Shown: positions 1 through 6,755 of the stretch, in pieces
How the letters are laid out: every line of letters starts with the position of its first letter
Numbering within the stretch: the first letter of the stretch is position 1
IMG/VR virus record: IMGVR_UViG_2711768074_000016
Location: 1-6,755 of that record
Direction: 5' to 3' (one strand)
Source: a virus
Lineage: Duplodnaviria; Heunggongvirae; Uroviricota; Caudoviricetes
Length of the DNA: 6,755 nucleotides
Translations under genes and position numbers: made by a program
Notes under the pieces: generated by a model
Databases searched by the model: none
What the model saw: only the letters and a program-made list of their open reading frames with translations
Told to the model about the DNA's origin: nothing

Positions 1-225
1 CTGTTCAGCGGCAAACCGATCCCCGACAACCGGGAAAACATCACTATTCGTCTGGATGATCACATTCAGTCTGTTCAGGGTAAAGAGAGCTATGAAGATG
101 AGATGTTCAGCATCAGATACTTTAAGAAGGGCTCCGCGCACATCACGTTCAGAAAACCGGAACTGGTTGATCGGCTAAATGACATCATTGCGAAGCATTA
201 TCCGGGGCAACTATCAGCCATCTGA
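1..225 (+). CDS. 3' end of a hypothetical protein (5'-truncated by the window edge); C-terminal 74 aa ...FRKPELVDRLNDIIAKHYPGQLSAI*
   Basis: Open frame 1 runs from the window edge to TGA at 223-225. It is convergent with the minus-strand operon and followed by a hairpin terminator. No family recognised from the fragment. Confidence 0.45.
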   Translation: MFSGKPIPDNRENITIRLDDHIQSVQGKESYEDEMFSIRYFKKGSAHITFRKPELVDRLNDIIAKHYPGQLSAI

Positions 226-243
226 GTCAGATGGAGAAAAAGC

Positions 244-267
244 TTACCTGACCCATTACCTGACCCA
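244..267. repeat. Perfect 12-bp tandem direct repeat (ttacctgaccca x2)
   Basis: Read directly: 244-255 equals 256-267. Lies between the stop of the plus-strand CDS and the terminator hairpin. Confidence 0.7.
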
Positions 268-282
268 ATTCAAAGGCAAAAG

Positions 283-323
283 AAAAAGGGTTAGCTGGTT
301 TATTAGCTAACCCTTTGTTGTAT
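283..323. terminator. Bidirectional intrinsic terminator between the convergent plus-strand gene and the tRNA
   Basis: 9-bp stem gggttagct (288-296) / agctaaccc (305-313) with an 8-nt loop. T-rich on the plus strand after the stem (tttgttgt) and on the minus strand after it (tttttctttt). Confidence 0.5.
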
Positions 324-324
324 A

Positions 325-400
325 TGGTGGCCCCTGCTGGACTTGAACCAGCGACCAAGCGATTATGAGTCGCTCGCTCTCACCACTGAGCTAAAGGGCC
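325..400 (-). tRNA. tRNA with anticodon CAU, tRNA-Ile2 (lysidine-type, ileX/ileZ-like) rather than tRNA-Met; 76 nt including encoded CCA
   Basis: The reverse complement folds as a canonical cloverleaf: acceptor GGCCCTT/AGGGGCC, D-stem GCTC/GAGC, anticodon stem AGCGA/TCGCT with loop CTCATAA, T-stem GCTGG/CCAGC with TTCAAGT loop, then ACCA. It is near-identical to E. coli ileX as I remember it, with a few substitutions typical of prophage copies. Confidence 0.88.
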
Positions 401-440
401 GGGAGCCGCATAATAACGACGCGTAATTAATTCTTCAATA

Positions 441-1499
441 TCATCCGTTCTGGCTGACTAAATCCTGTACTTCCCGAACCGTCTGCTCAAAACGTTCAGT
501 CTCCAGCTCAACGCCAATTGCACGACGCCCGAGCGCCAGTGCCGCTTTCACTGTCGAACCCGACCCCATGAAAAAATCTGCAATCAGGTCACCCGGACGA
601 CTGCTAGCGCTGATTATCTGCTGCAGCATTTCTGCCGGTTTTTCGCACGGATGTTTCCCGGGATAGAACTGCACCGGTTTATGCGTCCACACATCGGTAT
701 ACGGCACCTGCACCGTCACGCCAAAATACCGCCGCAGATGCTTATATTCACTCAGCAGTTCCATATACTGCCGGTTCAGCTCACTGTATGTGCTGACCAG
801 TTGGTAATGGGACTTTTCCAGTTCTCCCCGCTGATGTTTCTCTTCTGCCACCCGGGCAAACAGCGACTGTAATTTCAGATAATCGCTTTCGTTCGGTAGC
901 TGCCACTGACTGGCACTGAACCAGTGCGACACCATGTTTTTCTTTCCTGTGGCATCTGCAATCTGTTTTGCCGTTATCCCCAGGGCCGCGCGCGCATCAC
1001 GAAAGTAAGAAATCAGCGGGGCCATCACATGCTGTTTCAGTGCACTGCCCTTCGCCGCATACCCGGCATCTTTCGGACGATACGGCCCCTGATAATGTTC
1101 CGCGAACAGAATGCGCTCTGTGGCGGGGAAATACGCCCGCAGGCTTTCCTTGTTGCATCCGTTCCAGCGTCCGGACGGCTTCGCCCAGATAATATGGTTC
1201 AGCACACTGAAGCGTTCACGCATCATGATTTCGATATCAGATGCCAGGCGATGACCACAGAACAGGTAAAGACTTCCGGCAGGTTTCAGCACCCGCCAGA
1301 ACTGCGCCAGACACTGGTCCAGCCACTTCAGGTAATCATCGTCGCCCTTCCACTGGTTATCCCAGCCCTCGGGCTTCACTTTAAAGTATGGCGGGTCTGT
1401 GACTATCAGATCGACAGAGTTTTCCGGTAAGGTCTGGATAAATTCCAGGCAATCAGCGTTGATTAACTCACAACTGGATATTTTTACAGTATTAGCCAT
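441..1499 (-). CDS. DNA methyltransferase, beta-class (N6-adenine or N4-cytosine), probable phage orphan methylase, 352 aa
   Basis: Motif IV (VTDPPYF) lies near the N-terminus at residues ~33-39 and the AdoMet-binding motif I (DFFMGSGST) near the C-terminus. That permuted order is characteristic of beta-group amino-methyltransferases. No adjacent restriction endonuclease gene is visible. The RBS is weak. Confidence 0.85.
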   Translation of the reverse strand: MANTVKISSCELINADCLEFIQTLPENSVDLIVTDPPYFKVKPEGWDNQWKGDDDYLKWLDQCLAQFWRVLKPAGSLYLFCGHRLASDIEIMMRERFSVLNHIIWAKPSGRWNGCNKESLRAYFPATERILFAEHYQGPYRPKDAGYAAKGSALKQHVMAPLISYFRDARAALGITAKQIADATGKKNMVSHWFSASQWQLPNESDYLKLQSLFARVAEEKHQRGELEKSHYQLVSTYSELNRQYMELLSEYKHLRRYFGVTVQVPYTDVWTHKPVQFYPGKHPCEKPAEMLQQIISASSRPGDLIADFFMGSGSTVKAALALGRRAIGVELETERFEQTVREVQDLVSQNG

Positions 1500-1649
1500 A
1501 GATCAATAAGCACTTCTCTGATAGGCTCATACCGCTTTTGCGCAAAGCAGATGGGCCTGAGGTTTGCTTGTGACCCCAACGCATGAGCAGATGGCTGGCA
1601 GGTGCCGCTAACACCCACCAGCCGCCCATTACCACAAATAAAAAAGCCT

Positions 1650-1970
1650 TCACTGAGGAAGGCGTCTGTAACAACCGAACTGATAATCTGCCAGACCCGC
1701 CATAACAAGCTGGGTCAGTATTAACTGGCAGCGTTCGCGTGAAAGATAAGTGTTCTGCGCAATTTCCCCGGCGGTCGCCGGTTCGGTGACGCTTAATTCA
1801 TTAAACACCACTCTGGCGGTTTCGGTCATATCCTGCTGTTTTAGCATGCCTTTTTCCATTTTCCGGTTAACGTGACATACCAATAACTCTTGTCGAAAAA
1901 GCCAGCAAGTTGAAAGACCGGTATTAGCAACCACCAGCGCGTTTAACGCCCCGTGCCGTTTTTCAGTCAT
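1650..1970 (-). CDS. Hypothetical protein (106 aa), coding status uncertain; C-terminal half has a helix-turn-helix-like character
   Basis: Longest minus-strand ORF between the Q-like gene and the methylase. Its ATG directly abuts the T-tract of the upstream terminator and has no Shine-Dalgarno. Two alternative-frame ORFs overlap it (1484-1708, 1492-1674). Confidence 0.3.
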   Translation of the reverse strand: MTEKRHGALNALVVANTGLSTCWLFRQELLVCHVNRKMEKGMLKQQDMTETARVVFNELSVTEPATAGEIAQNTYLSRERCQLILTQLVMAGLADYQFGCYRRLPQ

Positions 1971-1999
1971 AAAAAAACCCGCAAAAAGCGGGCTCTTTC
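1971..1999 (-). terminator. Intrinsic terminator immediately downstream of the Q-like gene (tR'-like)
   Basis: On the minus strand: stem cccgc/gcggg with a 5-nt loop followed by seven T residues (gcccgctttttgcgggttttttt). About 80-100 nt downstream of the Q-like stop, matching the short pR'-tR' arrangement of lambdoid phages. Confidence 0.55.
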
Positions 2000-2071
2000 A
2001 AATGTCCATGTCTGCTATTCGCCTCGCGGTACAGCTTTGCGAAGCTTACCGGAATTGAAGCAGTTTTTACG

Positions 2072-2638
2072 TCAAAAAGCAATAACTTTTTTCTCTATAC
2101 CAAAAGCCATAACCATTGGTTTGTACAAAATAAATTCTGCCACCTTTAGCCAATGCTCAATGCGTCTTTCACAGGTTCTTAAACTCCATTCCGGATGTGC
2201 ATCATTCAGCAGTTCAGCCATTTTGCGCTTAGTCATCCCCCGCCCCACATAACGCTGACTCAGAACATTGAGCAGCCCGGGATAACCTGCCAGTACTTCA
2301 CCAATAACCCTGTCGATTATTAACGCCTCTGAATCGGTACAATGTGCCAGCCAGCTTTTTTGATTGCCGTTGATCATATCCCGCAAAAAAGCCTCAAGTT
2401 CAGGTTTGTCCAGACCCGCTTTTTTCATCCTCCGGAGCGCCTCGTTAATTGCCGTTTTTGTCAGCTTTTTAGAGGTCAGTAATTGGTTGAACATATTTCC
2501 CGTCTTACCGTCGCCAATATACGACCAACGCCCCCACATACGCAGTTTCCCCTGGATCCAGACACTTTCCAGCGTTTTCAGGCGTAAATGCTCACCGCTT
2601 TTGCCTGTAATTTCCGGGTATATCATATTTATGCTCAC
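2072..2638 (-). CDS. Putative late-gene antiterminator Q-like protein, 188 aa
   Basis: Position immediately after rusA and before a strong terminator, as in lambdoid nin-Q regions. The LRMWGRW motif resembles the RWGAW motif I recall in Q-like proteins such as DLP12 QuuD. The track start at 2638 is GTG and overlaps the rusA stop; an in-frame ATG at 2626 is an alternative start. Confidence 0.5.
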   Translation of the reverse strand: MSINMIYPEITGKSGEHLRLKTLESVWIQGKLRMWGRWSYIGDGKTGNMFNQLLTSKKLTKTAINEALRRMKKAGLDKPELEAFLRDMINGNQKSWLAHCTDSEALIIDRVIGEVLAGYPGLLNVLSQRYVGRGMTKRKMAELLNDAHPEWSLRTCERRIEHWLKVAEFILYKPMVMAFGIEKKVIAF

Positions 2639-2994
2639 TCACTTTCAATTTTGTAAATCTTCACGCCCAGCCGCCCACCAGAAACGAGCTGACCGCGCAC
2701 AATATTGATTTCATCAAACTGCTCGTCGTCTATAAGTAGTCCGGCATGCGTAAGCGCATCCAGTGGTGCCTTCAGGATATTGTCCAGGTCGCGGCGGCGC
2801 TTATCCGGTGGCTCTGCAATAATCTTTATCGCCAGCCTTCCGGACAGGTTTAATTTCAGCCACTGCTGGCGAACAATAAGTGCCACATCCCGGCGATAAC
2901 GCTCACCGGCTTTTGACACAAAATATGTGCTGCCACGACGTCGCCAGTAGGTGTTCACCGTCGGCGGGTAAGGCAAAACAAACTCTATACGCAT
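2635..2994 (-). CDS. rusA: Crossover junction endodeoxyribonuclease RusA (Holliday junction resolvase), 119 aa
   Basis: The translation has the RusA hallmark RRRDLDN acidic catalytic motif and is collinear with E. coli RusA, which is ~120 aa. Good RBS (aagagg, 6-nt spacer). Stop overlaps the start of the next gene. Confidence 0.9.
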   Translation of the reverse strand: MRIEFVLPYPPTVNTYWRRRGSTYFVSKAGERYRRDVALIVRQQWLKLNLSGRLAIKIIAEPPDKRRRDLDNILKAPLDALTHAGLLIDDEQFDEINIVRGQLVSGGRLGVKIYKIESE

Positions 2995-3006
2995 CAGTAA
3001 CCTCTT

Positions 3007-4056
3007 TTACCCGAGCACGCCGGTTGCAAAGGCGCGATCAAGAAAACGAAAAATTAAATCAATCTGGGAACCATGCTTTTCTTCAAATGCCAGCGGATCA
3101 GCATGAAGTTCGTTGTGATGCTCCCGGCACAACGGTAGCGTGAAAATATCGTGGGCTTTTGTCCCTATTCCGCCCTGACCATGACCAATCAGGTGATGGG
3201 GATCGTCGGCTGGCTTACCACAACACGCACACGGCTGTGTCTTTACCCAGCGCGTATATTTCTCATTTACCCAACGGCGACGTTTAGGTCGCTTCATTAA
3301 AGATTCCGGAGACTCCGGATCAACAGCAATGCTGACCACCGTCTTTTCCTGTGGCGGGTTCTGTTGCTGGTGGGCGTGAGGCAGCGGCGCAAGATTTTTT
3401 GTGCGCTGTTTCAGTATGCTGGTGGCGGTCTGCTCTCCCGGTACGATGTCGCTTTCACGGTACATTGAGCGGATTTTTTCCGCACGCAACCCCAGCGAAC
3501 GACGTAATACCGCTTCCGGTAGCGCGTCCGCCACCTGATTGCGGATCGCCCACCAGGATAATTCAGCCAGCGATAATTCCCGTTCCTGCGAGCCATTCAT
3601 TGCATGGCGTATGACGTCAATCATCCATGCAGACAGGTTTTGGTGAGCAAGTTGCCCGAGTGATTCGGAGGTCTGGTCGCGCAGCTGGTTGTCGCAGTGC
3701 CAGCACAACACCATTGCGCCGGTACCATAACGATGTATGACGGTTTCACTGTGATGGTAGTCACCATGAGGCCACTGGCAGGATTTGACATGACGCAGGA
3801 GCCAGTCAGACAGTGCGCCAGCGCCGCCAGCAGCACGAATCACACGCTCATCGCTGAAAAATGGCAGTAATGATTTATCCTCCGCCAGCGGCTGGCGAAC
3901 GGCAGGGACGACTCCGGACGGCAGACCGCGCATGCTTTTCGGTTCCGGCTCCACCAGCACCCTGCCGCAATGAAAAACCGGCAGTGATTCGCGACCGGGC
4001 TTAAGGACCACCAGCCCGAGTTCCGGTACCAGAACAGGTCGAAGTAATACCCGCAC
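3007..4056 (-). CDS. ydfU: DUF968-family prophage protein (YdfU-like), 349 aa, with a C-terminal Cys/His HNH-like motif
   Basis: Same length and N-terminus (MRVLLRPVLVPELG...) as the Qin prophage YdfU that I recall. C-terminal CACCGKPADDPHHL...CREHHNELH cluster. Tightly packed with both neighbours (1-nt gap to the upstream stop, 12-nt gap to rusA). Confidence 0.8.
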   Translation of the reverse strand: MRVLLRPVLVPELGLVVLKPGRESLPVFHCGRVLVEPEPKSMRGLPSGVVPAVRQPLAEDKSLLPFFSDERVIRAAGGAGALSDWLLRHVKSCQWPHGDYHHSETVIHRYGTGAMVLCWHCDNQLRDQTSESLGQLAHQNLSAWMIDVIRHAMNGSQERELSLAELSWWAIRNQVADALPEAVLRRSLGLRAEKIRSMYRESDIVPGEQTATSILKQRTKNLAPLPHAHQQQNPPQEKTVVSIAVDPESPESLMKRPKRRRWVNEKYTRWVKTQPCACCGKPADDPHHLIGHGQGGIGTKAHDIFTLPLCREHHNELHADPLAFEEKHGSQIDLIFRFLDRAFATGVLG

Positions 4057-4057
4057 G

Positions 4058-4336
4058 TTACCTCCAGATGCGTTGCTGGAATGTGCGGGACAGACGCGGT
4101 GGGCGTTCGGAGTAAGGAAGCCCGACGGAGATTATCCAGTGACGGTAGTCGAGGCTAAGGGCTTTTTTAACCTCGCATCCGCGCCTGCGGTAACACTGAA
4201 TGAGCCATTCGGCCTGTTCTTCAGTGCATGGGGGATGCTGGTACCAGTCTGACTTAAATGCGTGAGAATACCGCTCGTGCGTGTGGGCAAGAACGGTCGA
4301 ATTATCATGATTGTAATATTTTGCGTTGCGTGCCAT
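4058..4336 (-). CDS. Hypothetical prophage protein, 92 aa
   Basis: Strong RBS (GGAGG, 6-nt spacer before ATG at 4336). Stop immediately precedes the DUF968 start, suggesting translational coupling. No family recognised. Confidence 0.6.
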   Translation of the reverse strand: MARNAKYYNHDNSTVLAHTHERYSHAFKSDWYQHPPCTEEQAEWLIQCYRRRGCEVKKALSLDYRHWIISVGLPYSERPPRLSRTFQQRIWR

Positions 4337-4402
4337 CGGTTTCCTCCGGCGGCACGGTGTTACTCAGCGGGAGTTCAGCCCCGCGCAAGATTGTAGATGA
4401 GT

Positions 4403-4654
4403 TTATTCTTCTGAAAAAGCAGAAAAGCCAGCTTTTATTCCGATCTCTTTCAGTGCCTGTAATGAAGTGACAAACTCACCTTCGCGCAAGATAAATCCGT
4501 CTGTCACTCGACCATCCACAAAATTAATTAACGCAGCCCCATTCTTTCGCAAACACACAATGCGGTAATGACTAACAATATTTCCATTTTCAACGCACAC
4601 AGCATAGAGGCCATCTTCACAAAAAATTTTACGCAGTTCTTCGATGTTCATCAT
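4403..4654 (-). CDS. rem: Rem-like small prophage protein, 83 aa
   Basis: Same length, MMNIEELRK N-terminus and position (between hokD and the DUF968 gene) as the Qin prophage rem gene as I recall it. RBS GGAAGG with a 6-nt spacer. Confidence 0.65.
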   Translation of the reverse strand: MMNIEELRKIFCEDGLYAVCVENGNIVSHYRIVCLRKNGAALINFVDGRVTDGFILREGEFVTSLQALKEIGIKAGFSAFSEE

Positions 4655-4770
4655 CAGAATCCTTCCGGATAATTAGCTCTCCCCTTTAAGGGACCATCCC
4701 TCTTATCCCTGCGCGCTACTTAAGTATTTTTGATTCTATTCCGACACCGTCCAGAACTTCAAATGCGTTG

Positions 4771-4800
4771 AAAATAAAAACAAAAACCCGCCGAAGCGGG
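4771..4800 (-). terminator. Intrinsic terminator of the hok mRNA
   Basis: On the minus strand: stem cccgc/gcggg with a 4-nt loop followed by tttttgtttttatttt. About 70 nt downstream of the hok stop. Confidence 0.65.
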
Positions 4801-4870
4801 TTAAGTGCGGGTGCGTTGAGGATGCCTGACACATCAGCGGTGGCGAGGGATTTCTCCCCCGCCTGGTCTC

Positions 4871-5026
4871 TTACTCCTCAGGTTCGTAAGCTGTGAAGAC
4901 AGCGACCTCCGTCTGGCCGGTTCGGATTCGTACCTCGCAGAGGTCTTTCCTCGTTACCAGTGCCGTCACTATGACGGTTAAACAGATGACGATCAGGGCG
5001 ATTAACATCGCCTTTTGCTGCTTCAT
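4871..5026 (-). CDS. hokD: Hok-family type I toxin (HokD/RelF-like), 51 aa
   Basis: The translation MKQQKAMLIALIVICLTVIVTALVTRKDLCEVRIRTGQTEVAVFTAYEPEE matches HokD as I remember it. RBS AAGGAG upstream of ATG at 5026. Single transmembrane helix followed by a periplasmic tail. Confidence 0.85.
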   Translation of the reverse strand: MKQQKAMLIALIVICLTVIVTALVTRKDLCEVRIRTGQTEVAVFTAYEPEE

Positions 5027-5083
5027 AGCCTGCTTCTCCTTGCCTTTCGGCGCGTAAGAGGCTAACCTACGTTTGTGAAGCAT
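4871..5083 (-). CDS. mok-like reading frame: in-frame N-terminal extension of hok (70 aa) that gates hok translation
   Basis: ATG at 5083 with GAGG 8 nt upstream. The 19-aa extension MLHKRRLASYAPKGKEKQA parallels the MokC extension in K-12, which is likewise in frame with its hok. Confidence 0.45.
   Translation of the reverse strand: MLHKRRLASYAPKGKEKQAMKQQKAMLIALIVICLTVIVTALVTRKDLCEVRIRTGQTEVAVFTAYEPEE
5040..5068 (+). promoter_or_regulatory. Candidate promoter for a Sok-like antisense RNA (-35 TTGCCT, 17-bp spacer, -10 TAACCT)
   Basis: Hexamers read on the plus strand inside the mok/hok overlap, positioned so that a transcript would run antisense across the mok start codon and SD. Sequence pattern only. 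Confidence 0.25.
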
Positions 5084-5152
5084 AGATTGGGCCTCAGATT
5101 AATGTTAAGCGTCTTGCAGGACGCGTAATGTTAACTGGGGCTTTTCTCTGTC
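5075..5152 (+). ncRNA. Putative Sok-like antisense RNA complementary to the mok translation initiation region
   Basis: Inferred from the candidate promoter plus a downstream hairpin (gcgtc...gacgc at 5111-5126, enclosed by gcctcag/ctggggc) followed by ttttctc. Ends are not defined. Confidence 0.2.
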
Positions 5153-5237
5153 TGCCTTACGGTGGCATGCCCGAGGCAGACAGCCTCAAGCACCCGCAGC
5201 AATTCTACTTAACTCCCGTCACCTCGCCAATATAAAA

Positions 5238-5327
5238 TCAATCAGAAAGGCGATCCATAAGAACAATAGCAAGACAATAAATTGCCACTACAGCCGCAAT
5301 AGCCAGCGCGCATTTGAGAACCAGCAC
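5238..5327 (-). CDS. Possible small hydrophobic protein, 29 aa (VLVLKCALAIAAVVAIYCLAIVLMDRLSD, GTG start)
   Basis: Consensus AGGAGG Shine-Dalgarno 5 nt upstream of GTG at 5327. Single predicted transmembrane segment with a charged C-terminus. Starts ~70 nt downstream of the SIR2-like gene stop on the same strand. Below the ORF-track size cutoff; unverified. Confidence 0.25.
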   Translation of the reverse strand: MLVLKCALAIAAVVAIYCLAIVLMDRLSD

Positions 5328-5397
5328 GATAACCTCCTGTATTGGACGTACACCAGCTCTGATAAATATGAGGCTGCCTCTTTAACTTCGCATTGCG

Positions 5398-6429
5398 CTA
5401 CCAATCAATAAAATCAGTGATGTTATCCAACCTAATTACAGTAACTTCCCGTCTCAACTGGTTTTTCCAATATATCTCACGAGCGTTTTGTTCACCAGCA
5501 CCGCTCCACTCAATTACTCTTAAAGGCTTAGAGGTTAGGTAAGGTCGAATAAGCAGGTTAAGGTGAATATCGAGACCAGAGTAACCAAACAATATTATTT
5601 CTTCTGATTCAAATAATGCAAACTGCAAATAATCCCAGTACGTAGAAAGAACATTAGATGCTGCTATAACTGACGGTTTTCTTTTTATATGAGTTAACAC
5701 TATATGCTCACTAGGTTCATCTATGTCAAGAGTAAGTTGTGAGCGTGAAAGTTTTAAAACATTTTCATGCTGATTAATAAATAGTGGTGAACCATGCAAG
5801 TGCAAATAATAACCAAACCTACGATTGTATTTCCGTTCGAGCGCTGCAGAGGAAAATCCGTGGCTTAGCATCCCATCAACTAAAACCCCATCATACCCGT
5901 TGAATATATCATTATCTATGAATGAATTGTATAATAATTTGTCATAGTTTAATGTCGCGATATGTGAGTGTGTGTTCTTTACAAACTCCACAAGCGCATT
6001 TTCGAATCTTTGTGGCAAACCTTTATCGTAATTATGCAACCTGGTTGCAACTTTGTGAATATAAGTGGCGGTAATTTTGGGGAAGTTTAGTCCATCTTCA
6101 GTAAGCCAATGCACGTTCCCCTCTCCAATTTGAGCAAGAGCTTTACAATATGTGACAGCCTGGTGAAGGGTATCCAACTCATGTTCTCCTTCTGGTGGAC
6201 CTTGCCGCTGAAGACAACGCTCGATAAGTTGCTTGTGGATATCTTTTAAAAAATTGGGGCGATGCCAAATTTCTTCCAACGCTCTGTCTAAGGAGAAGTG
6301 AGCAGGATCTAAAGCCATACCGAGACCGTTGCCGAATATTATTAATTTTCTTGCCATATAGGGGGACTCATATTGGAATAACGCTGGATAGCGTCGCGCG
6401 ATACGCTTAAGTTTAGGATTAATAGACAT
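5398..6429 (-). CDS. Stand-alone SIR2-like domain protein (SIR2_2/ThsA-like fold), candidate NAD+-depleting antiphage defence effector, 343 aa
   Basis: The translation carries the four SIR2_2-type motifs in the correct order and spacing: a Rossmann glycine-rich loop LIIFGNGLG (res 29-37), TLNYDKLL (res ~158-166, putative catalytic Asn161), LHLHGS (putative catalytic His212, codon at 5794-5796) and ILFGYSGLD (res ~278-287). Compare ThsA: FAGAGLS, TTNYDRL, MHGD, LFVGFSFTD. The gene is AT-rich with many rare ATA and AGA/AGG codons. The start is uncertain: 6429 has a weak RBS and the in-frame ATG at 6357 is an alternative. Confidence 0.6.
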   Translation of the reverse strand: MSINPKLKRIARRYPALFQYESPYMARKLIIFGNGLGMALDPAHFSLDRALEEIWHRPNFLKDIHKQLIERCLQRQGPPEGEHELDTLHQAVTYCKALAQIGEGNVHWLTEDGLNFPKITATYIHKVATRLHNYDKGLPQRFENALVEFVKNTHSHIATLNYDKLLYNSFIDNDIFNGYDGVLVDGMLSHGFSSAALERKYNRRFGYYLHLHGSPLFINQHENVLKLSRSQLTLDIDEPSEHIVLTHIKRKPSVIAASNVLSTYWDYLQFALFESEEIILFGYSGLDIHLNLLIRPYLTSKPLRVIEWSGAGEQNAREIYWKNQLRREVTVIRLDNITDFIDW

Positions 6430-6651
6430 TCCGTTTGATTACTCTTGTTATTACAAACTTGCATGCAAAGAAGCCCAAGCTGTTAGGTAAACAGAGACCG
6501 CAGTGGCAAGATAATCTAGATATAGCCTATAAAATCCAACAACAAATAGCGGCCTGTTTTCTATGACTTTTCTTTTCCCTAAATATCGCTTATCTAATAA
6601 AATGCAATAATGTATTGCACAGTATTTAATGTGTATTAATATAGATAAGTA

Positions 6652-6755
6652 GGTGATGCTGCCAACTTACTGATTTAGTGTATGATGGTGTTTTTGAGGT
6701 GCTCCAGTGGCTTCTGTTTCTATCAGCTGTCCCTCCTGTTCAGCTACTGACGGGG
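6652..6755 (+). mobile_element. IS1 insertion sequence, left end (partial; continues beyond the window)
   Basis: The canonical IS1 left inverted repeat GGTGATGCTGCCAACTTACTGAT starts at 6652 and is followed by sequence identical to the IS1 5' region as I recall it. Confidence 0.9.
6707..6755 (+). CDS. insA: IS1 InsA, N-terminal fragment (3'-truncated by the window edge)
   Basis: GTG at 6707 followed by codons for ASVSISCPSCSATDG, the InsA N-terminus. Confidence 0.8.
   Translation, partial: MASVSISCPSCSATDG

Follow-up and report, generated by a model that had tools for sequence, protein, structure and literature searches.

Among the SIR2 proteins of antiphage defence, DSR1/2, ThsA and the SIR2-HerA (Nezha) complex deplete nicotinamide adenine dinucleotide (NAD+). 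In PsSIR2, the NAD pocket is blocked by the small domain; SIR2 is inactive on its own, and deletion of residues 53-130 activates the NADase (PMC11472057). The single-gene protein sole-Sir2, of ~440 amino acids, is an NADase in vitro, and a homologue protects Escherichia coli against phages T2 and T4 (bioRxiv 10.1101/2024.12.27.630466). Here we analyse a stand-alone SIR2-like gene on the minus strand of a 6,755-nucleotide stretch of Caudoviricetes DNA, hereafter the window (IMG/VR record IMGVR_UViG_2711768074_000016, positions 1 to 6,755). We propose, with a probability of roughly 55%, that the gene encodes a self-contained, single-domain SIR2 NAD+ glycohydrolase, which would be carried as a prophage 'moron' and would act against other phages through NAD+-depleting abortive infection. 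The gene and its product have the following features.

5398..6357, minus strand: likely true coding sequence of the stand-alone SIR2-like protein (319 amino acids plus stop codon; RefSeq WP_000101550.1)
6358..6429, minus strand: likely untranslated leader of 72 nucleotides (24 codons in the 343-codon reading frame), as judged from the ratio of nonsynonymous to synonymous substitution rates (dN/dS) and from its being absent or closed in most homologues
6319..6333, minus strand: GNGLG, glycine-rich Rossmann loop, residues 9-13 of 319 (N10 and G11 invariant in 73 sequences)
5941..5955, minus strand: TLNYD with catalytic Asn137 and Asp139 (N137, Y138 and D139 invariant in 73 sequences)
5788..5802, minus strand: HLHGS with catalytic His188 (H186, L187, H188 and G189 invariant in 73 sequences)
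5569..5589, minus strand: FGYSGLD, start of the GYSxxDxH(L/I)N motif (G258, D263, H265 and L266 invariant in 73 sequences)
5971..6291, minus strand: helical 'small domain' between strands 1 and 2, residues 23-129 (from the secondary structure of the model)

An earlier interpretation made from the letters alone, which we call the sequence-only reading, assigned 343 residues to the product. A minus-strand open reading frame (ORF) of 343 codons is indeed present at 5398..6429, but the protein is most likely 319 amino acids long and would start at the ATG at 6357, M25 of the longer frame. M25 is invariant in the homologue alignment and serves as start codon in most of 794 homologues; in most loci the equivalent start is preceded by a Shine-Dalgarno sequence and by a stop codon a few codons upstream. 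The RefSeq entry, named 'SIR2 family protein', has 319 amino acids. Compared with the 87% E. coli allele, two metagenomic relatives and a Serratia copy, the gene evolves at a dN/dS of 0.08-0.16, against 0.5-0.7 for the 24 upstream codons, and in more distant copies homology is limited to the coding sequence plus ~40 bp ahead of M25, ending at window positions ~6393-6406. We therefore rejected the N-terminal extension of the 343-residue version, which evolves like non-coding DNA, is missing in most homologues and lies upstream of the RefSeq start. With translation from M25, the catalytic residues are numbered Asn137, Asp139 and His188 (N161 and H212 in the 343-residue numbering); the Asn and His named by the sequence-only reading are intact and invariant. 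The gene is real, intact and under selection.

The four SIR2_2-type motifs previously recognised in canonical order are all in place (GNGLG 33-37, TLNYD 159-163, HLHGS 210-214 and FGYSGLD 281-287 in the 343-residue numbering), and their columns are invariant or almost so in alignments of 21, 71 and 73 homologues. The predicted membership of the SIR2 family is borne out by Pfam SIR2_2 (PF13289), which the protein matches narrowly, at 26.1-26.3 bits against a gathering cut-off of 24.5, and which is also matched by 68 of 73 family members spanning 38-100% identity. The AlphaFold2 model, built from 71 sequences (mean predicted local distance difference test score, pLDDT, 90.8; predicted template modelling score, pTM, 0.90), contains a Rossmann sheet whose first two strands are separated by an inserted helical domain of ~105 residues; this is the SIR2-type Rossmann fold with its small domain. 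Neither Pfam nor the model reveals any further domain in the 319 residues, which the SIR2 fold occupies throughout, in line with the suggestion that no sensor domain is fused to it. The protein belongs to the SIR2_2 superfamily and would work like its members. The alternatives set out beforehand did not materialise: a SIR2 match and a Rossmann core were both found, and the homologues do not lie in conserved metabolic operons, the single metabolic neighbour encountered, pncB, occurring among unrelated core genes.

The structural comparison with antiphage SIR2 proteins proposed in the sequence-only reading gave a consistent picture, the closest structural relatives being antiphage SIR2 NADases of the SIR2-HerA type. 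In a Foldseek search against the PDB, the top matches were the SIR2 subunits of antiphage SIR2-HerA (E = 1e-10, template modelling score ~0.6), with human SIRT2 and SPARSA ranked far behind; the structural alignments cover ~270 residues with the SIR2 proteins of SIR2-HerA versus ~200 with classical sirtuins. A search of the fold database BFVD gave no close match. At the sequence level the link is faint: a profile of the diverse family reached 8yhx_G at E = 0.002 and 8w9l_A at E = 0.085 among PDB sequences, and the profile of close homologues retrieved nothing relevant there. The alignments to these two chains nevertheless keep TxNYD, LHGS and GYSxxDxH(L/I)N in register, the last being a motif common to SIR2-HerA SIR2 proteins (GYGFPDEHIN and GYSYKDQHIN in 8yhx and 8w9l). 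Residues N137, D139 and H188 align with N163, D165 and H212 of PsSIR2, HLHGS lying opposite KLHGS; these three are the putative catalytic residues of PsSIR2 (PMC11472057).

For all this resemblance, the locus differs from each of the described systems. SIR2-HerA (8w9l, 8yhx, 8j4u, 8sub) is the best structural match, yet identity is only 14-17%, its SIR2 proteins have 360-400 amino acids rather than 319, and the adjacent HerA gene that defines it is found neither in the window, nor in the E. coli prophages, nor at any of 82 homologous loci. Thoeris ThsA ends in a signal-binding domain, SLOG (or else Macro), at its C terminus and has a TIR-domain ThsB neighbour, whereas the present protein has a single domain and no TIR protein among its neighbours. 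DSR1 and DSR2, of ~1000 amino acids, possess a C-terminal sensor region, and no DSR model matches the 319-residue protein at E<=1. SPARSA combines SIR2-APAZ with a short Argonaute; here there is a weak Aga_SIR2 match to the SIR2 part, with no extra domain and no Argonaute neighbour. More generally, ThsA, Kongming KomC, DSR1/DSR2, SPARSA and Avs5 have either a sensor domain (SLOG, APAZ, STAND or the DSR C-terminus) or signal-producing partner genes, neither of which occurs here. Since each defining partner or domain was sought and not found, the locus is not SIR2-HerA, Thoeris, DSR, SPARSA or Avs5.

Three groups of small stand-alone proteins also call for comparison. Like the present protein, sole-Sir2 is a small, single-gene SIR2 protein proposed as a complete defence system, but by its description it has an additional substructure at the N terminus and, at the C terminus, a SIR2 domain that is DSR2-like, whereas here the Rossmann loop begins at residue 9 and a Nezha-like SIR2 fold fills all 319 residues. 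DUF4917 (PF16263, which includes SliP) and the PADLOC candidate PDC-S21 likewise comprise stand-alone proteins of comparable size (their profiles have 311 and 336 positions) encoded by patchily distributed accessory genes. Their hidden Markov models show weak reciprocal similarity to the family, 21 of 73 members matching DUF4917 (best E = 6.9e-9) and 54 of 73 matching PDC-S21, but for the window protein both scores are far below family level: it has no DUF4917 match at E<=1, and one relative reaches 18 bits against a gathering cut-off of 28. By that threshold the protein falls outside Pfam DUF4917. Of the model searches suggested by the sequence-only reading, SIR2_2 thus returned the expected match, and DUF4917 and a strong PADLOC match did not. 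SliP of Campylobacter jejuni has, moreover, been described as a secreted deacetylase, not as a defence enzyme (PMC10421069), and no mention of PDC-S21 was found in the literature searched. Given the RefSeq label and these existing small stand-alone SIR2 candidates, the idea is not new, and calling the arrangement 'possibly undescribed' was an overstatement: 'SIR2 family protein', PDC-S21, the DUF4917 proteins and sole-Sir2 all precede it. As a family, these proteins are uncharacterised; PADLOC v2 does not capture them, and their architecture is the smallest of those compared (sole-Sir2 by its description).

The gene is accessory and horizontally transferred, and has repeatedly been carried by phages. 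It occurs in 46 of 5426 complete E. coli genomes in the form of two alleles, 30 with ~99% and 16 with ~87% identity, many of the hosts being pathogens (O55:H7, O111:H2 and porcine enterotoxigenic E. coli, ETEC). The E. coli copies always come directly after the DUF977 gene, the last of the replication module in a Qin/Rac-type lambdoid prophage. In other prophages this slot is occupied by relBE, ydfV or flxA; the accessory slot had been anticipated in the sequence-only reading. Among 1.84 billion representative proteins, the family forms 305 clusters at 50% identity (155 at E<=1e-30), with lengths that are nearly all 310-365 amino acids. Outside E. coli it is widespread but sparse: it was located in 80 species genomes, among them Gamma-, Beta- and Alphaproteobacteria, Chloroflexota and Verrucomicrobiota. 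Proteins of Saccharospirillum, Bacterioplanes, Chromohalobacter, Aeromonas and Vibrio share 73-78% identity with that of E. coli, and in 87 of 89 loci the G+C content (GC) of the gene is below that of its flanks (median difference -0.079). Together, the patchy range, the identity across taxa and the low GC indicate repeated horizontal transfer. Many copies are chromosomal and lie outside any phage. Family members are also present on 20 IMG/VR contigs, including distant ones (41-52% identity; L109 8001-8978, L115 8001-8960 and L114 8001-8963) at quite different sites in unrelated phages: in a ~51 kb phage, in the gap that separates the portal gene from the major head gene; in a Mu-like transposable phage, following a PIN_12 protein; and next to a DNA methyltransferase in the vicinity of tail genes. 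Two Vibrio proteins, P0042 (506 amino acids) and P0044 (541 amino acids), are 67-68% identical over the SIR2 part and carry N-terminal extensions of 190-220 residues, which are similar to each other and in which no Pfam domain was found; this extension, seen in a few Vibrio proteins, may represent a sensor or regulatory domain fused to SIR2, or else an artefact of gene calling.

The claim that the protein has no obvious partner holds not only in the window but across the family. Clustering of all ORFs within 4 kb at the 82 loci (neighbour genes being called by a simple longest-ORF rule) recovered no neighbour family in more than 5 loci. Pfam assigned the 74 nearest upstream genes to ResIII/type I restriction (3), integrase (2), NAPRTase (2) and many housekeeping families, and a PADLOC scan of the 144 nearest neighbours found no HerA and nothing recurrent, with helicase-type defence proteins in 2-3 loci and the candidate PDC-M36A beside the Serratia copy. 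On the evidence of these scans, the gene is solitary as a rule. Two neighbourhoods deserve mention. At five alphaproteobacterial loci, a homologous ORF of ~200 amino acids with no Pfam match abuts or overlaps the SIR2 start, with gaps of -3 to 13 bp (L054 7342-8001, L066 7388-7993, L069 6679-8001, L075 7402-8004 and L080 6362-6976), and the two genes may constitute a two-gene variant of the family. In Serratia plymuthica (L003), the gene at 5812-7854, 147 bp upstream of the SIR2 copy and encoding 680 amino acids, matches PDC-M36A with E = 6e-21, and a Fic-domain gene follows ~1.1 kb downstream; with these two neighbours the Serratia copy sits in a small defence-like island.

The neighbourhoods also bear on the possibility that the family is a mobile housekeeping enzyme of NAD turnover or salvage, which we regard as very unlikely. 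In four Rhodobacteraceae genomes with conserved synteny, a homologue lies 21-44 bp downstream of pncB, encoding nicotinate phosphoribosyltransferase, and the Klebsiella copy is followed by a P-loop gene that weakly resembles AAA_28 (NadR-kinase-like). However, pncB is adjacent in only 4 of the 82 loci, the genes around it in the Rhodobacteraceae are unrelated core genes (a carboxylase, TrhO, ArfB, a Vut_1 transporter and MepA), and the GC of the SIR2 gene is 11-14 points below that of its flanks there, so that the gene looks inserted. For the Klebsiella neighbour, the only matches are to generic P-loop models and fall short of the respective cut-offs, and the SIR2 gene is present in less than 1% of E. 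coli genomes. An NAD-salvage operon was rejected, with pncB as the only such neighbour, in four related genomes and amid unrelated core genes. At these loci (L074, L082, L084 and L086, ~6650-9650), the AT-rich SIR2-like gene lies between pncB and a convergent gene for an ArfB-like RF-1 domain protein.

Under the abortive-infection reading, a Qin/Rac-type lambdoid prophage would carry the SIR2 gene as optional cargo. In the lysogen the enzyme, possibly a homo-oligomer, would most plausibly be inactive, with the helical small domain covering the NAD pocket as in the closest solved relatives, and infection by another phage would provide some trigger that lifts this block. Asn137, Asp139 and His188 would then split NAD+ into ADP-ribose and nicotinamide, and the infection would be aborted by the resulting lack of NAD+. 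The NADase chemistry is suggested by the invariant Asn/Asp/His residues in combination with the SIR2 fold, the 'off' state by the precedent of PsSIR2 and ThsA, and the defence role by the accessory, phage-borne distribution together with the precedent of DSR1/2, ThsA, SIR2-HerA and sole-Sir2. Residues 23-129 are, by analogy with the equivalent domain of PsSIR2, a candidate auto-inhibitory or sensing lid. In the dN/dS comparisons described above, this insertion evolves no faster than the catalytic core; family-wide it is somewhat more variable, with a major-residue frequency of 0.49 versus 0.61, and has no hypervariable patch.

Several observations weigh against this proposal. The whole protein, small domain included, is strongly conserved and has no fast-evolving region, which would be unusual for a direct sensor of phage proteins, and the SIR2 protein of Nezha needs HerA for activation, a partner with no counterpart here. 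Defence genes in the neighbourhoods are scattered, and many loci lie between ordinary core genes. PADLOC similarities are only remote, at E = 3e-6 for Aga_SIR2, ~1e-5 for PDC-S21 and 5e-5 for the 'SIR2' models; the best values anywhere in the family are 8e-12 overall and 1.5e-9 for the 'SIR2' models. Searches of NCBIfam and PHROGs gave no match, and tblastn against the INPHARED phage records identified no sequenced phage with a close match to the gene. No paper on the protein or its family was found and an accession search returned nothing, in a literature search to which many subscription journals were closed; nor was there a match in the E. coli defence screens (Vassallo 2022, Rousset 2022, DefensePredictor 2026, the domain-centric NAR 2026 study and a language-model preprint), of which the domain-centric study explicitly left out single-gene candidates. 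Finally, an NADase and an NAD-dependent protein-modifying enzyme are indistinguishable by sequence.

This last point concerns a deacylase or ADP-ribosyltransferase that would regulate a host or phage protein, or a virulence factor, rather than deplete NAD+ in bulk. The Asn/Asp/His chemistry is common to sirtuin deacylases and NADases, so the sequence does not discriminate between them; the uniformly strong purifying selection fits a conserved substrate; many E. coli carriers are pathogenic; and SliP, a member of the DUF4917 family to which part of the present family is weakly similar, is reported to be an active deacetylase (PMC10421069). Classical sirtuins (CobB/Sir2), however, have a Cys4 zinc module in the small domain. 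In the present family only two cysteines are conserved (C72 and C95, in the 343-residue numbering), there are no CxxC pairs and the small domain is all-helical; with only two conserved cysteines, the Cys4 module of deacylase sirtuins is absent. Together with the structural ranking, which favours SIR2-HerA, this leads us to consider such a modifying enzyme unlikely. As an aside, the gene for SliP, Cjj81176_0779 ('secreted sirtuin'), shares an operon with a type I restriction R subunit (PMC10421069), a typical defence-island setting, and one may ask whether proteins of the SliP type act primarily against phages.

A service to the prophage itself, either as an addiction or stabilisation toxin or by tuning host NAD during lytic growth or the lysis-lysogeny decision, seems improbable as well. 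Toxin-antitoxin loci do adjoin the gene (hok/sok in the window, relBE in the same slot of other prophages and TacAT elsewhere), the gene occupies different positions in several unrelated phages, and the E. coli copies are co-oriented with the early rightward operon, so that they would be transcribed during induction. On the other hand, the cassette that carries the gene consists of one gene and a leader of ~350 bp with no significant RNA structure or conserved ORF, and no antitoxin candidate travels with it; many copies are chromosomal and lie outside phages; and those phage strategies that are known restore NAD+ instead of destroying it (bioRxiv 10.1101/2024.02.11.579819).

A bolder version of the abortive-infection reading can be put forward tentatively, although we hold it to be less probable than its negation: the protein could be the smallest self-sufficient SIR2 immune module so far, a Nezha-like enzyme without HerA or a sensor domain, which would sense infection with its own small domain, or via a conserved metabolite or host cue, and would deplete NAD+. 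It would then represent a phage-borne, single-gene defence family of ~300 clusters, in Proteobacteria and beyond, that lies outside the defence model sets searched. That the protein is strongly conserved across distant bacteria points to a trigger that is itself conserved, and less to a phage protein that evolves fast; identifying this trigger would be useful. Should it defend alone, a SIR2-only protein of 319 amino acids would be a minimal model for the off/on switching of SIR2 NADases, a question now tangled with HerA, SLOG, APAZ and STAND partners; the family would merit inclusion in defence-annotation databases, and the lambdoid prophage slot of pathogenic E. coli would gain another type of cargo. 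Conversely, if the gene is not for defence, a defence-like SIR2 fold in a phage slot would not by itself establish immunity.

The mobile unit has sharp edges, which in the window are as follows.

6358..6651, minus strand: non-coding stretch of the cassette upstream of the gene, presumably its promoter and leader (truncated by IS1 at 6651/6652)
5384..5397, minus strand: 3' end of the cassette, where homology to copies elsewhere ceases 14 bp beyond the stop codon (blastn breakpoints at 5383-5385 in three independent contexts)
6652..6755, plus strand: left end of the insertion sequence IS1 (context, outside the gene; insertion 294 bp upstream of the start codon)

The same sharp-edged cassette is found in the prophage, in an island with TacAT and an IS110 remnant, and near rpoD-mug. 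Homology with the copy in this unrelated, non-prophage island, in which the upstream non-coding part is conserved at ~87%, runs from the IS1 junction of the window to 5384, and two further contexts break at this same point. In the 87-89% alleles, an insertion of ~98 bp exactly where the SIR2 cassette meets the hok flank (window ~5384; L087 9001-9400 and L104 1500-2170) marks a sharp recombination joint. The leader has no significant RNA structure (z = 0.15) and no Rfam match, on which grounds a structured RNA or riboswitch was rejected; no conserved ORF was found in the ~350-bp leader, and operator-like inverted repeats at 6589-6649 were set aside, being poorly conserved by eye in the 87% alleles.

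The neighbouring IS1 and hok of the sequence-only reading are both present, the former from 6652 and the latter within 4871-5195 (Rfam sok 5021-5195, hokD 4871-5026). The IS1 segment matches thousands of places in E. coli genomes, but none of the 46 complete E. coli genomes with the gene has it at this site. Where IS1 is missing, upstream conservation extends over ~350 bp, ~60 bp beyond the IS1 junction of the window. Because IS1 has inserted within this conserved region, expression of the window copy may differ from the native one, and the interval 5238-6651, suggested for cloning with the native upstream region, lacks the portion cut off by IS1. At this junction (6638-6755), the end of IS1 places a TTGGCA 16 nucleotides from a TATATT of the cassette, with 10 of 12 matches to the consensus, directed at the SIR2 gene; the best promoter-like site of the IS1-free copies, TTGACA-18-AAAAAT, is found ~100 bp past the point of insertion.

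Downstream of the gene, the minus strand at 5238-5327 contains an unannotated ORF of 29 codons, with a GTG start and an AGGAGG Shine-Dalgarno sequence, which encodes the hydrophobic peptide VLVLKCALAIAAVVAIYCLAIVLMDRLSD and is situated upstream of hok/sok; a terminator-like hairpin is predicted inside it, and it may be a small membrane peptide or nothing. The idea that homologues of the SIR2 gene might keep this ORF did not hold up: the cassette ends at ~5384, and the ORF belongs to the hokD flank, which is common to more than 4000 E. coli genomes at 90-95% identity. As this flank occurs there without the SIR2 gene, the ORF was rejected as a partner. At the other side of the window, ARAGORN predicts a tRNA-Met with a CAT anticodon at 325-400 on the minus strand, for which the counterpart by the DNA methyltransferase in the prophage is called tRNA-Ile by RefSeq; it is presumably of the lysidine-modified tRNA-Ile type and belongs to the Arg-Arg-Ile tRNA cluster of this prophage family.

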